Assembly: GCA_044356295.1 (NCBI GenBank)
Contig: JBIKWN010000001.1
Coordinates: 96,001-160,000 of the forward strand
Origin: Bdellovibrionota bacterium
GTDB taxonomy: Bacteria > Bdellovibrionota_C > UBA2361 > JBIKWN01
Length of the DNA: 64,000 bases
Direction: 5' to 3'
How positions within the stretch are numbered: position 1 is the stretch's first letter; every line of letters begins with the position of its first letter. Both the position numbers and the translations under genes were made by a program. A model generated the notes under the pieces. That model saw nothing but the letters and a program-made list of their open reading frames with translations, ran no database searches and was not told the origin of the DNA. Below, piece by piece: positions 28,959 to 35,886 of the stretch.

Positions 28959-30269
28959 ATGTTTCGTTTTTTACCTGAACAAGCCTCAAGTGTCGCCAGC
29001 GAAGTTGATTGGTTGCATAACATCATTACAGACCTCTCGGTGTTCTTTACCGTGGCAATCGTCGGCACGATGCTCTACTTTGCATTTAAGTATCGCGCTA
29101 AAAATGGAGTTGATCACGCAACACCTAGAATCGAAGGTAGCCATTTTCTAGAGCTTGTTTGGACAATCGTTCCAACTCTTATATGTGTATTTGTTGGTAC
29201 TTATGGAATTCTCATATTTAAAGACATGCGAACTGTTGGAGAAAATCCAGTTGTTATTAACGTTACCGGAAAAAAATGGAACTGGACGTTCCAATATGAA
29301 AATGGAAAACAAATTGTTAGTGAAGCTGTAATCCCTGTAAACAGACCAGTTAAGTTTGTACTCACATCGAAAGATGTTTTGCATAGCTTCTTTGTTCCTG
29401 CAATGAGAGTGAAGAGTGATGCCATACCTCATCGCTATACGTATGTAACTTTTAATCCGATTAAAACTGGTGAGTATCAAATTTTTTGTACAGAGTACTG
29501 CGGCACAAGTCACTCAGATATGTTAGCGAAACTTCGAGTAGTTCCAGAGGATGAATATACTCGTTGGTTAAATGATCAATCAGATAAAATTAAATTTAAT
29601 CCTGCTGAACTCGGTGCACAGCTCTATAATCAACAAGGGTGCGCTGCTTGTCACTCAGTAGATGGCTCAAAAAGAGTAGGTCCATCATTCCAAAAAATTT
29701 ATGGCCGAGATGGAACCTATGATAATGGAAAGCCGTATAAAGCTGATGATGATTACTTACAGGAATCAATTCTTTATCCAAATACTCATATTGTTGATGG
29801 CTATGCTGCCAATCAGATGCCAGCATTTAAGGGTATCCTTAGTGATGAACAGATAGCAGCAATTATTGCTTGGATGAGAACACTCGATGGTTCTCAAGCA
29901 ACTCAAGCAGCAGCTCCAGCGCCGCAGTTTCAATTTGCAAAACTTCTTAACGGCGATGATCCTTCGAAGCAATCACCAGCTGAAAGAGGTAAAGCAATCT
30001 ACCAAGCAAAAGCTTGTATTGGTTGTCACAGCTTAGATGGCTCACAAGTTGTTGGGCCAACATGGAAGGGGCTTTACGGTTTAACCAATCACAAGATGTC
30101 AGATGGTACTTCAGTAACTGCTGATGATTCGTATCTCAAAGAATCAATCTTAAATCCTACGGCTAAAATAGTTGAAGGATTCCAAGCAGGGGTGATGCCT
30201 TCTTACCAAGGGCAGCTTTCTGATGCAGAAATAGCTGACGTCATTGAATTCATGAAGACTATTAAATAG
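28959..30269 (+). CDS. coxB: Cytochrome c oxidase subunit II with two fused cytochrome c domains
   Basis: DVLHSF, CTEYCGTSHSDM (CuA), CAACH and CIGCH. Confidence 0.95.
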   Translation: MFRFLPEQASSVASEVDWLHNIITDLSVFFTVAIVGTMLYFAFKYRAKNGVDHATPRIEGSHFLELVWTIVPTLICVFVGTYGILIFKDMRTVGENPVVINVTGKKWNWTFQYENGKQIVSEAVIPVNRPVKFVLTSKDVLHSFFVPAMRVKSDAIPHRYTYVTFNPIKTGEYQIFCTEYCGTSHSDMLAKLRVVPEDEYTRWLNDQSDKIKFNPAELGAQLYNQQGCAACHSVDGSKRVGPSFQKIYGRDGTYDNGKPYKADDDYLQESILYPNTHIVDGYAANQMPAFKGILSDEQIAAIIAWMRTLDGSQATQAAAPAPQFQFAKLLNGDDPSKQSPAERGKAIYQAKACIGCHSLDGSQVVGPTWKGLYGLTNHKMSDGTSVTADDSYLKESILNPTAKIVEGFQAGVMPSYQGQLSDAEIADVIEFMKTIK

Positions 30270-30279
30270 AGGATATTGT

Positions 30280-31944
30280 ATGAGCGAAGCAGTACATGCT
30301 GATGGAACAAATTATTTAAATTGCGAAAAGGGACTTTGGTCTTGGTTGACTACTGTTGATCACAAGCGAATTGGCTTGATGTATCTTTATGCAATCACAC
30401 TTTTCTTTTTTGTTGGAGGGCTCGCAGCTCTTGCTATACGTGTTGAGCTTTTTCAAAGTGGTCCAACTTTTCTTCATCTTCTTACAGGTGGTGATTTAGT
30501 AAAGGCAAAGAATCTCTATAATATTCTTTTCACTCTTCATGGAGTGATAATGATCTTCCTATTTATTGTTCCGGGTATCCCTGCAGTAATGGGTAACTGG
30601 CTTCTCCCAGTTATGATTGGAGCAAAAGATGTTGCATTCCCACGATTAAATCTTTTGAGCTATTACATTTACCTTCTTGGTGCCCTTATTGCCCTGATTT
30701 CGCTTCTAAGTCCTATTGATACTGGTTGGACTTTTTATGCTCCTTATTCTCTGCAAACAAGTTCAGCAGTTGTAATGATGACCTTTGCTGCTTTTGTATT
30801 AGGGTTTTCATCAATCCTTACAGGACTTAATTTTATCGTAACAGTACATAAGCTTCGTTGCCCTGGAATGACTTGGGGTAAACTTCCTGTCTTTGTTTGG
30901 GCTGTTTATTCAACATCCATTATTCAAACACTTGCAACGCCCGTTGTCGGAATGACACTTGTTCTTTTAATTATTGAAAGAGTTGTAGGGATAGGAATTT
31001 TCGATCCAGCCAAGGGCGGAGATCCAGTATTTTATGAACATATGTTTTGGTTTTACTCTCACCCTGTTGTTTACATCATGGTGCTTCCTGCTTTTGGAGT
31101 AATAGGAGAGATAATCCCAGTTTTTTCAAGAAAACCAATCTTTGGATATAAAGCAGTTGTTGCGGCATCCCTTGGGATCGCTGCAGTAAGTTTCATTGTA
31201 TGGGCTCACCATATGCTTGTTGCTGGTATCTCTGATACTTCAGGAAAGCTTTTCTCAATTATAACTTTTGCAGTTGCAATCCCAACTGCAGTTAAGGTTT
31301 TTAACTGGGTAAGTACAATGTATAGAGGATCGATAAAGCTTGATACTCCGATGCTTTATGCTATGGCATTTGTGTTTCTTTTTATGGTTGCCGGTACCAC
31401 AGGGATTTATCTTGCAACTCTTGCCGTCGATGTGTTTTATCACGATACCTATTTTGTTGTTGCTCACTTCCACTACACTATTCAAGGTGGAGCTGTAATT
31501 GGACTAGTAGCAGCACTTCATTTTTGGTTCCCGAAAATGTTTGGCACTATGTACAACATCACAATCTCGAAAATCGCGTTTTGGTTGATCTTTATTGGAT
31601 TTAACGGAACGTTTCTTCCGCAGTTTGTTGCTGGAATGCAGGGAATGCCCCGACGATATTATGATTATCCTGTTGAATTTGAAATTTGGCATAGCATCTC
31701 GACAGTCTTTGCATTTTTAAATGCTGCTGGATACTTTTTAGCGCTAGCAAACCTTTTCTATGCAATGGCATTTAGTAAAAATAAAGCTAGTGACAATCCT
31801 TGGAATTCACTTGGTTTAGAATGGAAGATGGCGACACCTCCTCCAACAGAGAATTTTCCAGTTACTCCAGTTATCCCTGAAAATGAATGGTCATATGGAT
31901 ACGGAGATGAATTGCCAGGTAAAGCTACAAAAGGAGCTCATTAA
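30280..31944 (+). CDS. coxA: Cytochrome c oxidase subunit I, type A2
   Basis: DHKRIG, FWFYSHPVVY (YS motif), WAHHM, HFHY, MPRR. Confidence 0.97.
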   Translation: MSEAVHADGTNYLNCEKGLWSWLTTVDHKRIGLMYLYAITLFFFVGGLAALAIRVELFQSGPTFLHLLTGGDLVKAKNLYNILFTLHGVIMIFLFIVPGIPAVMGNWLLPVMIGAKDVAFPRLNLLSYYIYLLGALIALISLLSPIDTGWTFYAPYSLQTSSAVVMMTFAAFVLGFSSILTGLNFIVTVHKLRCPGMTWGKLPVFVWAVYSTSIIQTLATPVVGMTLVLLIIERVVGIGIFDPAKGGDPVFYEHMFWFYSHPVVYIMVLPAFGVIGEIIPVFSRKPIFGYKAVVAASLGIAAVSFIVWAHHMLVAGISDTSGKLFSIITFAVAIPTAVKVFNWVSTMYRGSIKLDTPMLYAMAFVFLFMVAGTTGIYLATLAVDVFYHDTYFVVAHFHYTIQGGAVIGLVAALHFWFPKMFGTMYNITISKIAFWLIFIGFNGTFLPQFVAGMQGMPRRYYDYPVEFEIWHSISTVFAFLNAAGYFLALANLFYAMAFSKNKASDNPWNSLGLEWKMATPPPTENFPVTPVIPENEWSYGYGDELPGKATKGAH

Positions 31945-31947
31945 ATT

Positions 31948-32607
31948 ATGAATAGTGCACACGCTGAAGTTGTAAAACCTGGTGAACCGCCACATGCGCA
32001 TCATTGGGATCCTGTAAATGCGTATCATGGCTCAAAATTAGCCATGTGGCTTTTTCTTGCTACAGAGATTCTTCTTTTTGCAGTTATTCTTGGTGGATTT
32101 TTTCTTTTTCGTTGGGAATATTTTCAAGAGTTTAAAGCCGCTTCACACCAATTGAATTGGAAATTTGGTGCAGTCAACACTGCCGTACTTCTTTTTAGCA
32201 GTTATACAGCTGTTCTTGGAGTTGATGCAGCGCAACACGGCGATAACAAGGGAATTATTAAATACTTTGGTACTTCTATCTTATGTGGTTTTGGATTCCT
32301 TGGAATTAAATCTGTTGAGTACGGTTCAAAGTTTTCACACGGAGTATTTCCATGGACACAATCGATTATACATGATGGTCACGAAGAAAAGTTCGGGAAT
32401 TTCTTTGGATTCTATTACTGCTTAACAGGTCTTCATGGTTTACACGTTATTATCGGAATGAGCTTGCTGGCTTGGATGTGTTTAAAGGCCAGAAAGAATC
32501 GCTTCTCAGCACACTACTATACCCCAGTTGAAAACGTTGCTCTTTATTGGCACTTAGTCGATCTTATCTGGATTTATCTATTCCCAATGCTTTATTTTAT
32601 ACATTGA
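31948..32607 (+). CDS. coxC: Cytochrome c oxidase subunit III
   Basis: WLFLATE, TGLHGLHV, YWHLVD. Confidence 0.95.
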   Translation: MNSAHAEVVKPGEPPHAHHWDPVNAYHGSKLAMWLFLATEILLFAVILGGFFLFRWEYFQEFKAASHQLNWKFGAVNTAVLLFSSYTAVLGVDAAQHGDNKGIIKYFGTSILCGFGFLGIKSVEYGSKFSHGVFPWTQSIIHDGHEEKFGNFFGFYYCLTGLHGLHVIIGMSLLAWMCLKARKNRFSAHYYTPVENVALYWHLVDLIWIYLFPMLYFIH

Positions 32608-32642
32608 TTTAACCAAGACTTTACGTAATCGAGTAATACATT

Positions 32643-32990
32643 ATGAGTCATCATTCACACGACGCACATCACGGAGAGCTTGGACATATTGTTCCTAGAG
32701 ATGTTTATTTAAAAGTTTTCCTTGCACTTCTTGTTCTGACGGTCATTACCGTTGGAGTAGCACATATTGATATCAGCCCTGGTTGGAATCTTGTCCTTGC
32801 TCTTTTTGTTGCAACTATCAAGGCAGTCTTAGTACTTCTTATTTTTATGCATCTAAAATATGAAGATAAAGTTATATGGGCATATGTTGCATTTCCGATA
32901 ATTCTTGTTTTTATTCTAATCGGCGGAGTGTATTCCGATAATCCACTCAGAGTTCATACCGAACCAATGCAAGTAAAAATGCAAAAATAA
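32643..32990 (+). CDS. coxD: Cytochrome c oxidase subunit IV
   Basis: Three TMs, KAVLV..FMHLKY, His-rich N-terminus. Confidence 0.85.
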   Translation: MSHHSHDAHHGELGHIVPRDVYLKVFLALLVLTVITVGVAHIDISPGWNLVLALFVATIKAVLVLLIFMHLKYEDKVIWAYVAFPIILVFILIGGVYSDNPLRVHTEPMQVKMQK

Positions 32991-33030
32991 AAAACGGCGA
33001 AGGTAGATACTCCTTCGCCGTCGATCTTTT
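32985..33030. terminator. Bidirectional intrinsic terminator
   Basis: ACGGCGAAGG-tagatact-CCTTCGCCGT, long U-tract on the minus strand, TTTT on plus. Confidence 0.8.
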
Positions 33031-33270
33031 AGATTAAGAACTTTATCTTCTTGAGCCTAAAAGCTTTTCGGTATTTTTAAAACGCCCCTCAAACGCCGAA
33101 AAAATGGTTTATCCCGTCTTAATCCCGACGGAGAGGCGTCATTATACTATGTTCATTCATTGACGAATCACCTCCCTTCTAAAATATGTTTACTAGTCAC
33201 TTTTTAAATACGTAAGGAGTGGCATACCGATGAAAGCTCCAACATCCCGTCATTAAAAAGTTTTGGATGT
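32985..33270 (-). ncRNA. Candidate structured small RNA / micro-peptide mRNA (ORF MNEHSIMTPLRRD at 33119-33160)
   Basis: SD AGAAGGGAGGTGAT 33167-33180, several complementary segments, own terminator. Confidence 0.45.
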
Positions 33271-33442
33271 AACTTTACAGAATTGCAAACATTACAACCT
33301 AAGAAAAAACTTCTTTCTTCCTCTGAGTATGTACAAAAAACTCAACCTCTATAAGAGGAAAAATAGAGGCTACGTCATAAATGATAATAAATTTGCCCCT
33401 GTCGAATTAGAAGCGGATGTATGCTATGTTCTAGATAAGTAT

Positions 33443-34042
33443 ATGGCTCAAATTTTAATTATAAATGGATCAATCTCTGGGAATGCTGGAAATACTGCTG
33501 AGTTACTAGGGCTTGCAGAGATGCGTCTTTCGGAGCAAGGGCACACTGTTGATTATCTTGAACTAGTTCGAGACCCATCTCTCGATAGAATTATTGAGCA
33601 AGCCTCCAAAGCAGATGCATTTATTTTTGGAACTGGAACATACTGGGACTCATGGGGATCTCCCCTTCAGAAATTCTTTGAAATAACTTCTTCAACAGAA
33701 GGAGAAGATTATTGGCTTGGAAAACCAGTTGCTGCAATCGTTACGGCACATGCGGTTGGAAGTAAAGGAATACTTTCTAGACTCTTTGGTGTGTTAAATG
33801 TATACGGAATGTTAATACCACCACTTGCAGGTTTTGCTTATACCTTTGTTAATCATGTTGCGCTTACAAAAAATGTTGCACCTGAAGAGTTAGAAAAAGA
33901 GCTTTGGAGTCACCATGACGTTGATATCGTCACTCATAATTTAATAGAGGCAATCAACGGGACAAATCGTTGGAAAAAATGGCCAAGTGATAACGTACAT
34001 TATGTTGATAAGTGGTTAAATCTTTTAACAGGTGATGAATGA
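33443..34042 (+). CDS. NAD(P)H-dependent FMN reductase / flavodoxin-fold protein
   Basis: ILIINGS..GNT, ADAFIFGTGTYW, GKP; start at ATG 33443 (MAQILIING). Confidence 0.8.
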   Translation: MAQILIINGSISGNAGNTAELLGLAEMRLSEQGHTVDYLELVRDPSLDRIIEQASKADAFIFGTGTYWDSWGSPLQKFFEITSSTEGEDYWLGKPVAAIVTAHAVGSKGILSRLFGVLNVYGMLIPPLAGFAYTFVNHVALTKNVAPEELEKELWSHHDVDIVTHNLIEAINGTNRWKKWPSDNVHYVDKWLNLLTGDE

Positions 34043-35886
34043 CCTCTCGTTTTATTGTAAGTGCAGCTTCAATAAAATTAACTCCTCTTGATTTCGAGGG
34101 AAATAGAAGAAATATTATTACCGTTATAGAGCAAGAGAGGCGAGCAGGGACTTCTCTGATCTGTTTTCCTGAGCTCTGTATTAGTGGTTACGGATGTGAA
34201 GATGCTTTTTTCTTTCCTCACGTCATAGATCTTGCTCTACGTTCGCTTGAAGAAATCATCGAGGCGACACAAGACATTGCTGTGGTAGTCGGCCTTCCAC
34301 TTATATTTAAAAATACTCTTTATAATTGCGCTGCACTGATACATAACAAGGAACTCTTAGCGGTTGTTCCCAAGCAACATCTTGCAAATAATGGAATCCA
34401 TTACGAAACTCGATGGTTTTCTGCATGGACACGTGAAAAGAAAGATTTTATTGAGATCAATAATCAAAAAATTCCATTTGGTGATATCGTTGTATCTCTT
34501 GAAGATCAAGTCATTGGTTTTGAAATCTGTGAAGATGCCTGGGTCGAAGACAGACCGGCTCGAACTCTTAAGGAACGCTCAGTAACAATTATAGTGAATC
34601 CATCAGCGAGCCATTTTTCTTTAAGAAAATACCTCATTCGCTTAAACTTAATTCGTACTGGCTCAAAAATTTCGAATGCAGTCTATGTTTACGCAAACCA
34701 GCTTGGCAACGAAGCAGGAAGAGCGATTTATGATGGCGACGGGCTTATTGCAGAAAATGGATTGATCGTTTCTGCAACGCGAAGATTTAGTTTTGGACAA
34801 TTTCAAGTCTGTAGGTACGAATTAAATTCGTTAAAAGATAAAAATTCTAGTAAAGAAGTTATTTCGTACCAAGCGAGTGAAGAAGAGCAGTTTGAAGAGT
34901 TTACCCGTGCTGCAAGTTTAGGACTTTTTGATTATTTAAAGAAATCAGGATCGAAAAACTTTGTGCTTTCCTTGAGCGGTGGAGCTGATTCTACCTCAGT
35001 TCTTTTATTAGTATCTGCTATGGTCCATTTTGGAATAGGGGAACTTGGGTTTGAAAACTTTAAAAATAATTTAGATCCAGTATTTTACTCAGCATGTAAA
35101 AATGAAAGAGAGCTTTTAGCAAAGCTTCTCATTTGTGTTTATCAAGGCACTGAACAAAATAGCGAAGTGACCAGCTCTGCTGCAAAACAAGTTGCTACGC
35201 AGGTTGGAGCTAGTTTTTTTACTATTTCTGTTGATGATCTTGTTTCTAATTATACATCCAAGATTGAATCATTAATTGGAAGAGAATTGAGCTGGGAGAG
35301 TGATGATATAGCCCTTCAAAATATTCAATCCAGAGTTCGCTCACCAGGAATATGGTTTCTTGCAAATATTGTTTCTGGTTTATTGTTAACGACAGGGAAT
35401 CGAAGCGAAGCTTCTGTTGGATATTCTACAATGGATGGAGATTCTAGCGGCTCTTTGGCCCCAATAGCAGGGGTAAGTAAGTATTATATAAAACAGTGGC
35501 TTTTATATATGCAAACAAAAGGTATTCCTTCTTTTGGTCCTTTCCCTTGGCTTTCTTGTATTACTGAACAATCTCCTACTGCTGAGCTTCGTCCATTATC
35601 ACAACATCAAACTGATGAAGCAGATCTAATGCCCTATGCAGTACTTAATTGTTTTGAGCAACAATATTTGCGGGACAAAAAAAATCCTATAGAGATAAAA
35701 ATAAATGTTTCACGTATATTTCAATCTGAATATTCCGAAGAGCAGATTTCACTTTGGTTCGATAAGTTTTTAAGGCTTTGGAAGTCTTCTCAGTGGAAGC
35801 GTGAGCGAATTGCTCCTTCATTTCATCTTGATGATTTTAGCGTAGACTCAAGAACCTGGATGCGTTATCCGATTCTTTCAAAATAG
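34039..35886 (+). CDS. nadE: Glutamine-dependent NAD+ synthetase
   Basis: Nitrilase domain (FPEL, PK, EICED) plus SLSGGADS, QNIQSR, GNRSE, GYSTMDGD, PTAEL. Confidence 0.95.
   Translation: MTSRFIVSAASIKLTPLDFEGNRRNIITVIEQERRAGTSLICFPELCISGYGCEDAFFFPHVIDLALRSLEEIIEATQDIAVVVGLPLIFKNTLYNCAALIHNKELLAVVPKQHLANNGIHYETRWFSAWTREKKDFIEINNQKIPFGDIVVSLEDQVIGFEICEDAWVEDRPARTLKERSVTIIVNPSASHFSLRKYLIRLNLIRTGSKISNAVYVYANQLGNEAGRAIYDGDGLIAENGLIVSATRRFSFGQFQVCRYELNSLKDKNSSKEVISYQASEEEQFEEFTRAASLGLFDYLKKSGSKNFVLSLSGGADSTSVLLLVSAMVHFGIGELGFENFKNNLDPVFYSACKNERELLAKLLICVYQGTEQNSEVTSSAAKQVATQVGASFFTISVDDLVSNYTSKIESLIGRELSWESDDIALQNIQSRVRSPGIWFLANIVSGLLLTTGNRSEASVGYSTMDGDSSGSLAPIAGVSKYYIKQWLLYMQTKGIPSFGPFPWLSCITEQSPTAELRPLSQHQTDEADLMPYAVLNCFEQQYLRDKKNPIEIKINVSRIFQSEYSEEQISLWFDKFLRLWKSSQWKRERIAPSFHLDDFSVDSRTWMRYPILSK

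Follow-up and report, generated by a model that had tools for sequence, protein, structure and literature searches.

The question raised by this locus is what lies on the minus strand of a 452-nt gap in a 64,000-nt stretch of Bdellovibrionota DNA (the window, in which all coordinates below are positions), between a COX4_pro gene (end 32990, plus strand) and an FMN_red gene (start 33443, plus strand). The source genome, a 2.96-Mb assembly, is labelled G000. No minus-strand open reading frame (ORF) of at least 40 amino acids is present in the gap. It contains instead a single-copy, conserved and structured minus-strand unit of ~295 nt (~33282-32988), which ends in its own terminator and is tied to no neighbouring gene. 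Our preferred reading, to which we assign a probability of about 0.58, is that this element is a ribosome-capturing small mRNA of the rre kind, acting at the RNA level, structurally more elaborate and from a phylum in which this kind is new.

The evidence starts from the Shine-Dalgarno (SD) sequence. The initial annotation, made from the letters alone, had described on this strand a near-complete complement of the 16S 3' end, much stronger than the SD sequences of other genes and followed by a 13-codon ORF starting at ATG 33160. Its minus-strand sequence and coordinates were found to be correct on reading, as were the start codon and the ORF. With the 15-nt tail from the 3' end of the 16S gene of G000 itself as reference (a longer genomic reference was used for the family comparison), positions 33179-33165 (minus strand) form 15 contiguous pairs, with an energy of -24.0 kcal/mol. 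This ranks second among the 23,624 GGAG/GAGG sites on both strands of the assembly, the first being the antisense of the 16S gene; the other top-ranked anti-SD sites, as read, lie inside coding sequence or have no usable start. The upstream SD duplexes of the 1,641 long ORFs of G000 (median -6.6 kcal/mol) are all weaker than -18 kcal/mol. Other 16S complementarity in the element amounts to 24 7-mers (including CGTCAAT after the SD) and four longer matches, a number at chance level.

The element is also conserved. A DNA search of 41 related genomes (own included) gave five matches, one of which was spurious (G020; 34 nt, E 7e-4), showing no SD, ORF or stem when read, and was dropped. The carriers, here termed type IV, are G000, G001 and G002, which belong to one genus, and G019, which belongs to another family; two GTDB families are therefore represented. 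The same three relatives were returned by an exact-pattern scan of 185,579 species genomes, while a metagenome scan returned one contig, nearly identical to G002, and no similar DNA was found in plasmid and phage collections. A covariance model (R1) matched 4 of the 91 genomes of the order and gave no further credible match across 124 Bdellovibrionota genomes, the weak matches in G115, G046, G102 and G120 (E 0.15-0.99) having no SD-AUG block and being dropped. Each carrier has a single copy. In type IV, all four members keep GGAGGTGAT[CT]CGTCAATGAA, 14 variable nt, and then TGACGCCTCTC, with identical spacings from GGAGG to AUG (10 nt) and from AUG to stem A (20 nt); they also share the UAAG stop context in a hairpin loop, a downstream ACCG[AG]AAA and the terminator. 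The conservation in relatives that the initial annotation had left to be checked is thus present, with an invariant SD-AUG block and an invariant 5' strand of stem A. The parts of the element are as follows.

33289..33294, minus strand: putative -10 element TAATGT, proposed on reading; homologues carry GTAATT at a comparable upstream distance.
32988..33282, minus strand: proposed transcript of ~295 nt; 5' end predicted, 3' end from the terminator; conservation with G002 extends over 33267-32989.
33242..33270, minus strand: 5' hairpin ACAUCC...GGAUGU, seen in minimum-energy folds; homologues have a differently sequenced hairpin here.
33224..33239, minus strand: 5' strand of helix P1, GAGCUUUCAUCGGUAU; its core CGGUA is conserved in four of four type IV members.
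33180-33167, minus strand: SD sequence as read, AGAAGGGAGGTGAT.
33165..33179, minus strand: extended SD, 15 contiguous pairs (three G.U) with the own 16S 3' tail; an extra G.U is possible at 33164.
33119..33160, minus strand: small ORF of 13 codons, MNEHSIMTPLRRD, from ATG 33160 to UAA 33121-33119, stop context UAAG; from reading and homologue comparison.
33131..33140, minus strand: 5' strand of stem A, GACGCCUCUC, which is codons 8-10; invariant in four of four type IV members.
33113..33132, minus strand: hairpin P3, UCCGUC/GACGGG, with the stop codon at the 3' end of the loop; from duplex computation.
33091..33104, minus strand: segment B, UUUUUUCGGCGUUU; pairs with B' (pseudoknot) or, via CGGCG, with CGUCG of the P3 5' strand.
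33081..33090, minus strand: 3' strand of stem A (A'), GAGGGGCGUU; changes in G001 and G019 turn G.U and U.G into G-C and U-A.
33060..33076, minus strand: B', also the 3' strand of P1, AAAUACCGAAAAGCUUU; a shared partner, pairing with B or with the P1 5' strand.
33029..33060, minus strand: spacer hairpin P5, AAGAA...UUCUU; a hairpin is here also in G002 and G001, none in G019.
32993..33022, minus strand: intrinsic terminator hairpin of 11 pairs, found by terminator scan; loop AGUAUCUA at 33011-33004, U-tract at 32992-32983.

The known system to which this design is closest is rreB of Bradyrhizobium, a stand-alone mRNA of 165 nt in which a 14-codon ORF follows 17 nt that perfectly complement the 16S 3' end (Hahn et al., RNA Biol 2017; PMC5711450). 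As described there, rreB co-sediments with 30S subunits, is weakly translated owing to its long SD and GTG start, and is stabilized when the start codon is replaced by a stop codon; its function is stated by its authors to be unknown. Analogues with 16-17 nt of complementarity are reported in that paper from four alpha-proteobacterial orders only, among them rreR, with 18 codons, and an ATG-start rre in Azospirillum (PMC5711450). Our element shares with rreB and rreR, as published, a small ORF directly after the extended SD (14 or 18 codons, compared with 13-16 in type IV). It probably also shares the format of a short stand-alone transcript with its own terminator (its promoter and 5' end being predicted) and an SD embedded in a complement of nearly the whole 16S tail (16-17 nt in rre, 15-16 nt here). 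In both cases folding predictions place the start codon and part of the SD region within structure, and the genomic context is not conserved across lineages. Unlike rreB, the element starts with ATG rather than GTG and leaves three unpaired nt before the AUG, whereas the run of rreB reaches the first base of the start codon; it belongs to another phylum, is longer (~295 nt compared with 165 nt), includes 3-4 G.U pairs in the G000 run, and encodes a poorly conserved peptide. Its long-range stem, predicted pseudoknot and conserved terminator loop are not known to us from rreB. The likeness is drawn from the published description of rre, and the 30S binding shown for rreB would be expected of the element by analogy. 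In the open-access and bioRxiv literature we found no earlier description in Bdellovibrionota, no anti-SD decoy RNA and no follow-up of rreB.

The added structure centres on stem A. The 286-nt region folds below all 200 shuffles on the minus strand (z -4.0), and the plus strand does likewise (z -4.2); since the two values are similar, fold energy cannot pick the strand. The pairs themselves are more informative. Stem A comprises 10 bp, including one G.U and one U.G (-16.2 kcal/mol), and, as the initial annotation had proposed, the computed pairing is workable on the minus strand only, the wobble pairs becoming A.C mismatches on the plus strand. These G.U and U.G pairs of G000 and G002 are G-C and U-A in G001 and G019, by changes in the 3' strand only. 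The 5' strand can alternatively pair with the SD at GGGAGGUG (-13.3 kcal/mol in G000, -12.6 to -13.8 kcal/mol across type IV). The CCGUC/GACGG hairpin had been said to hold the stop codon in its loop, and the UAA is indeed there; a hairpin at the P3 position with the stop codon in the loop is present in four of four type IV members (-7.8 to -12.5 kcal/mol). In type IV, stem A and the stop-codon hairpin are solid. Pairings were judged by duplex tests on each sequence against 300 shuffles; a model-guided alignment left G019 out of register. The numbers of shuffles, out of 300, that were at least as good as the real sequence are given here.

Stem A: G000 1, G002 0, G001 0, G019 1.
B/B': G000 31, G002 135, G001 1, G019 7.
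P1: G000 2, G002 57, G001 191, G019 131.

The B/B' core UUUUCGG/CCGAAAA is present in G000. It competes for the same 3' segment with P1 (33239-33224 with 33074-33060; -16.6 kcal/mol, or -19.4 kcal/mol in wider windows) and is the weaker of the two in G000, where the minimum-energy fold is the nested alternative, with P1 and an extension of stem A. In favour of the H-type pseudoknot in the order A-B-A'-B' that had been proposed for the element, the crossing order is there, stem A is far better than chance in four of four members, B/B' beats shuffles in G001 and G019, and the topology recurs in type I (see below); against it, B/B' is chance-like in G000 and G002 and, in G000, is outcompeted by P1. 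The helix B/B' is plausible and uneven across genomes. Of the two small hairpins originally placed at 33216-33270, one, at 33270-33242, was recovered as a separate hairpin in the minimum-energy fold, and the other was not. In the same fold of G000, CUCCUU pairs with AGGGAG, which might sequester the SD from upstream; no equivalent was found in the type IV homologues on reading. Two further contacts were considered and rejected. The loop of P5 (AGAUA) could kiss the terminator loop (UAUCU) in G000, and this is not conserved in G002 on reading. Part of the P1 5' strand (UCAUCGGUAU, 33224-33233, minus strand) matches positions 1453-1462 of the own 16S as a perfect complement over 10 nt; ~0.4 such 10-mers are expected by chance, and the match was regarded as a coincidence.

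The element proved to be one of several subtypes in a larger family. A long anti-SD complement followed by a start codon was sought in the 124 genomes of the phylum, with reversed patterns as controls, and the matches were read by eye. The first pattern gave 27 matches, compared with 18 for its reversed control, and the second 29 match rows, compared with 4. Reading and a sequence model (R2) built from one group led to three further groups.

Type I: 11 genomes; ORF of 23-29 codons starting MN[DN]xSDRP.
Type II: 2 genomes; ORF of 24 codons.
Type III: 2 genomes; ORF of 20-23 codons.
Type IV (the element of the window): 4 genomes; ORF of 13-16 codons.

Altogether, 19 of the 124 Bdellovibrionota genomes, in 8 families, carry a member. 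Members of the family are contiguously complementary to the 16S tail over 12-18 nt, and 9-10 nt separate GGAGG from the AUG of an ORF of 13-29 codons. A long-range stem starts with its 5' strand ~19-20 nt downstream of the AUG, a second helix stands in pseudoknot order to it, and the terminator loop often reads UAUCUA. In type I, the long-range stem, as computed with RNAalifold, has its 5' strand right after a conserved CCGAUA, ~19 nt after the AUG, and shows compensatory double changes at 7 of 8 pairs. The second helix of type I, with the variants GGUAGC/GCUACC, GGUGGC/GCCACC and GGUGAC/GUCGCC plus a variable extension (read from the duplex table), has its 5' strand between the two strands of the stem and its 3' strand after both, which is the pseudoknot order.

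The pairing with 16S is maintained throughout. Against the 16S tail of G000, all 19 members form 12-18 contiguous pairs. With the longer genomic reference there are 16 pairs in G000 (four G.U; longest perfect Watson-Crick run 9 nt), 18 in G001 (two wobble), 15 in G019 (one wobble) and up to 18 (one wobble) in sister subtypes. Substitutions within the paired runs of the 19 members are solely of the kind that keeps a wobble pair (C to U opposite G, A to G opposite U), which fits selection for pairing with 16S. Three unpaired nt separate the paired run from the AUG in four of four type IV members, and one nt does so in five type I members.

UAUCU is found in the terminator loop of 13 of the 19 members, 11 of them by script and two (G047 and G088, in which the script took the wrong T-run) by eye; for G032 the script gave no terminator. 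GGAGUAUCUACC occurs in the terminators of both G000 and G047, the latter from another family, and G011 has GAGUAUCUACC. Among the 44 RTATCTA sites of G000 that have a flanking stem of at least 6 pairs, the terminator of the element is, as read, the sole GC-rich one with a T-tract. There appears to be good evidence that the four subtypes are one family: they have the same SD design, types I, II and IV have Asn as their second codon, the stem lies at an equal distance, the helices follow the pseudoknot order, and the terminator loop recurs.

Loci that had a long ORF (a real gene) or no hairpin-terminator, as judged by eye, were excluded for that reason: 14 from the first pattern (L031, L032, L034, L037-L042, L044, L046, L047, L050, L051), nine from the second (L057, L062, L063, L068, L069, L073, L074, L077, L080) and the weak R2 matches in G028, G091, G050 and G061. 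As to L047 (G087:C187:2638-2656, minus strand), it has AAAGGAGGTGATCCATAAGTG and then a 16-codon GTG-start ORF in intergenic-looking sequence; it is uncertain and was left uncounted, and may be a more rreB-like variant.

The initial annotation had recognized no known family in the element. This holds for Rfam: Rfam 15 at gathering thresholds gave no match in the whole window, an E-value search of 32700-33700 gave noise only (E 0.36-8.3, all far below threshold), and on 12 loci of the wider family the only match was an unrelated tRNA. It does not hold in the broader sense, since a described kind exists (rreB/rreR) and the element is a subtype of a 19-genome family.

The family comparison also bears on whether the ORF could be an ordinary micro-protein gene, with a functional peptide of 13-16 residues whose expression would be tuned by the RNA features. 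The AUG, the frame and an ORF length of 13, 13, 13 and 16 codons are retained, a synonymous change (AAU/AAC) is seen at codon 2, position 7 is M/M/L/V and T-P-L is invariant; moreover, the RreB and RreR peptides are reported to be conserved within clades (PMC5711450). However, comparison with the other three type IV peptides (MNEHSIMTPLRRN, MNYSSKLTPLRLN and MNSSYNVTPLCRCWIV) shows conservation of the first residues and of those encoded by stem A only, residues 3-6 and 11 onward being unconserved. Since the T-P-L codons make up the 5' strand of stem A, a constraint on the RNA explains why none of their three positions varies. Sister subtypes keep only approximately the first 7 codons of ORFs of 20-29 codons, and the chance that a 13-codon frame stays open in three independent lineages without selection is ~0.1-0.2 (an estimate, not computed). 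Because the peptide is poorly conserved outside the stem A codons, we consider a micro-protein gene rather unlikely.

The invariance of the stem A strand could also be that of a seed. A trans-acting base-pairing small RNA (sRNA), possibly with a dual function, might use as its seed the C-rich, anti-SD-like UGACGCCUCUC or the terminator loop. This 11-nt segment is invariant in four genomes and complementary to SD-like sequences (-12.6 to -13.8 kcal/mol with the own SD), and the UAUCU loop recurs in the 13 members mentioned above; precedents exist for sRNAs with a dual function and for sRNAs that derive from attenuators and have leader peptides (PMC6614838, PMC7968998, PMC12612679). Yet the candidate seed is paired in stem A in every fold, and the equivalent strand of type I is not conserved in sequence and covaries freely, which argues for a structural role rather than a seed. 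Such an sRNA appears quite unlikely.

The terminator loop suggests one further arrangement, namely a two-point clamp on the 30S platform, in which the SD would zip up the 16S tail, the terminator loop (G)UAUCUA(C) would kiss 16S UAGAUAC, and the pseudoknot would block the path. UAGAUAC occurs at position 766 of the G000 16S, in what we take to be the '790 loop' (E. coli numbering), presumably located on that platform and with roles in the binding of IF3 and the joining of the subunits. On the other hand, an RNA of this size is expected to contain 7-nt complements of 16S by chance, and two of the four type IV members (G001 and G019) have no such terminator-loop motif, so a clamp is very unlikely. 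If true, the family would be an RNA-based factor parking or counting 30S subunits, which could suit predators whose life alternates between an attack phase without growth and fast growth.

That the unit stands alone, as the initial annotation had it, is backed by the G.U pairs, by the orientation of the T-tract in three homologues (the G001, G002 and G019 terminators have it on the strand of the element only), by its own terminator and by the lack of conserved neighbours. The terminator with a minus-strand U-tract and no downstream gene was likewise recovered, as the stem 33022-32993 found by the terminator scan; the next gene beyond it in G000 is the convergent COX4_pro ORF (end 32990), and in G002 a convergent COX4_pro gene likewise comes next. 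The location in the gap between COX4_pro and FMN_red might point to a cis element, that is, a leader-peptide attenuator, a plus-strand 5' untranslated region for the FMN-reductase/NadE operon, or a regulator acting antisense to the cox genes. An FMN-reductase-like gene is the divergent neighbour also in G001 and G002, folding is as strong on the plus strand (z -4.2, as given above) as on the minus strand, and the alternative pairings are attenuator-like. Nevertheless, the FMN-reductase-like neighbour is kept within the genus and is not found in G019, and the neighbours differ in G019 and at 15 of 15 other loci of the wider family examined, so that there is no conserved gene neighbourhood. Beyond the terminator, G000 and G002 have no gene on the same strand, and at other loci the genes that come next are unrelated; the alternative helices do not overlap the terminator, the G.U pairs become A.C mismatches on the plus strand, and the ORF has no run of regulatory codons. 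Since linkage to the neighbours is not conserved, a cis-regulatory role is extremely unlikely.

Several observations were made on the surrounding genes. The cytochrome c oxidase operon (28959-32990, plus strand) comprises a 436-aa first ORF with two CxxCH motifs C-terminally, a 554-aa ORF, COX3 (31948-32607) and COX4_pro (32643-32990). A terminator is called on the plus strand as well, at the hairpin 32994-33021, where the T-tract is weaker, and the two convergent units may share it. On the other side, 33443-35886 (plus strand) contains the FMN_red-family gene, with a 4-nt overlap with the gene for a 615-aa CN_hydrolase + NAD_synthase protein, i.e. glutamine-dependent NadE; ATG 33443 is the probable start of the FMN_red gene, rather than the listed TTG 33263. 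An Fe-dependent-repressor-like gene lies downstream of the G019 copy; in the sequence of that locus (L013/L033) it is broken, at about 1000-1010 in L013, by masked bases (XXXX in translation), which are no real feature.

Two other sites of G000 came to light in the anti-SD ranking and related reading. The third-strongest anti-SD complement of the genome (L081, C93:20351-20374, minus strand; GAAGGGAGGUGAUC, -23.2 kcal/mol) is directly followed by an ATG-TGA start-stop. The minus strands of contigs C128 and C38 (3874 and 8092) have near-identical coding stretches with GAGGAGGUGGUCG and then a perfect hairpin, GGTCGCAAAATGCGACC, and look like a duplicated or mobile gene.

As regards transcription, a 210-nt contig of one public rRNA-depleted metatranscriptome is identical (0 differences) to 33280-33071 and lies wholly inside the element, which is a weak sign of a transcript. 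The same library gives no cover on the flanking cox and FMN-reductase genes, and an uncovered stretch was not counted as evidence. The contig starts, at 33280, just downstream of TAATGT (33294-33289), a possible -10 element, so read because four homologues carry GTAAT at a similar distance. A consensus promoter scan found no minus-strand promoter upstream of the element. A sigma-54 reading of GTAAT-N-GC was rejected, the spacing being wrong in three of four sequences on reading.

Two further classes of known systems resemble the element in part. Ribosome-dependent leader-peptide attenuators and the sRNAs released from them are exemplified by trpL/rnTrpL of Sinorhizobium (PMC6614838, PMC7968998). 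They share with the element an ORF of ~14 codons, mutually exclusive pairings, an intrinsic terminator and a small RNA able to act alone. The element differs from them in that it has no downstream regulated gene and no regulatory codon runs, its SD is extreme, and its alternative helices spare the terminator: the last switching segment, B', ends at ~33060, the terminator stem begins at 33022, and a separate hairpin lies between, so that there is no overlap. Arrangements that stimulate frameshifting or pausing place the ribosome between an SD-like sequence and a downstream hairpin or pseudoknot. The element is similar to these in its strong anti-SD pairing upstream and its pseudoknotted structure past the leading edge of the ribosome, and dissimilar in that its SD is the initiation site rather than an internal one.

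Returning to the ribosome-capturing small mRNA, we infer the following for its binding to 30S, its stalling, its translation and its function. The extended SD would pair with approximately the whole free 16S tail, so that a 30S subunit would be captured with unusual affinity and with AUG 33160 in the P site. The domain of stem A and the pseudoknot would start just past the stretch of mRNA covered by the initiating ribosome. Once initiated, the ribosome would be held behind by the 15-bp SD helix and would face the pseudoknot ahead, which would make translation slow or paused. Translation would melt stem A and P3, and A', B and B' would be freed to re-pair, as P1 or as B/B'. The output is most likely at the RNA level: engagement of the ribosome may set the conformation or stability of the RNA, or the RNA may hold or report 30S subunits. 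It is less likely that the 13-residue peptide is the effector. Of the original proposal of a stand-alone ribosome-binding RNA (a decoy or stalling element) or a micro-peptide mRNA, the stand-alone and conserved unit has thus been retained, and ribosome binding and stalling are predictions from the sequence.

It should be noted that several points weigh against this reading. Overproduction of rreB in Bradyrhizobium had no effect on growth, and the authors doubt simple ribosome sequestration (PMC5711450). The SD pairing was computed with the genomic 16S end, from which the mature end may differ, and the SD helix may be shorter by its outer 2-4 pairs. Stem A in type IV varies by one-sided changes of the wobble type, with no double compensatory changes among the four sequences. 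B/B' is no better than shuffles in G000 and G002, P1 is supported in G000 only, and the second helix of type I clearly beats shuffles (at most 12 of 300) in only 6 of 11 genomes. From the metatranscriptome contig neither the strand nor the ends nor the level of a transcript can be read, and DNA may be present in a library of this type. Finally, homology of the subtypes is suggested by shared features and the terminator loop rather than by an alignment-based test.

The element is a real conserved feature that is absent from current RNA family libraries, and its discovery indicates that searching for maximal anti-SD complementarity uncovers unannotated genes. In the open-access and bioRxiv literature, small mRNAs whose SD spans the whole 16S tail have been described once, and from alpha-proteobacteria only (PMC5711450). 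To this design the present case adds a long-range stem supported by covariation, a likely pseudoknot and a conserved terminator loop. It would provide a second independent family in which such RNAs can be probed for ribosome-controlled RNA stability, sensing of free 30S subunits or subunit parking. The presence of the same design in a distant phylum argues that it is a recurrent and selected mode of engagement between RNA and ribosome, rather than a curiosity.

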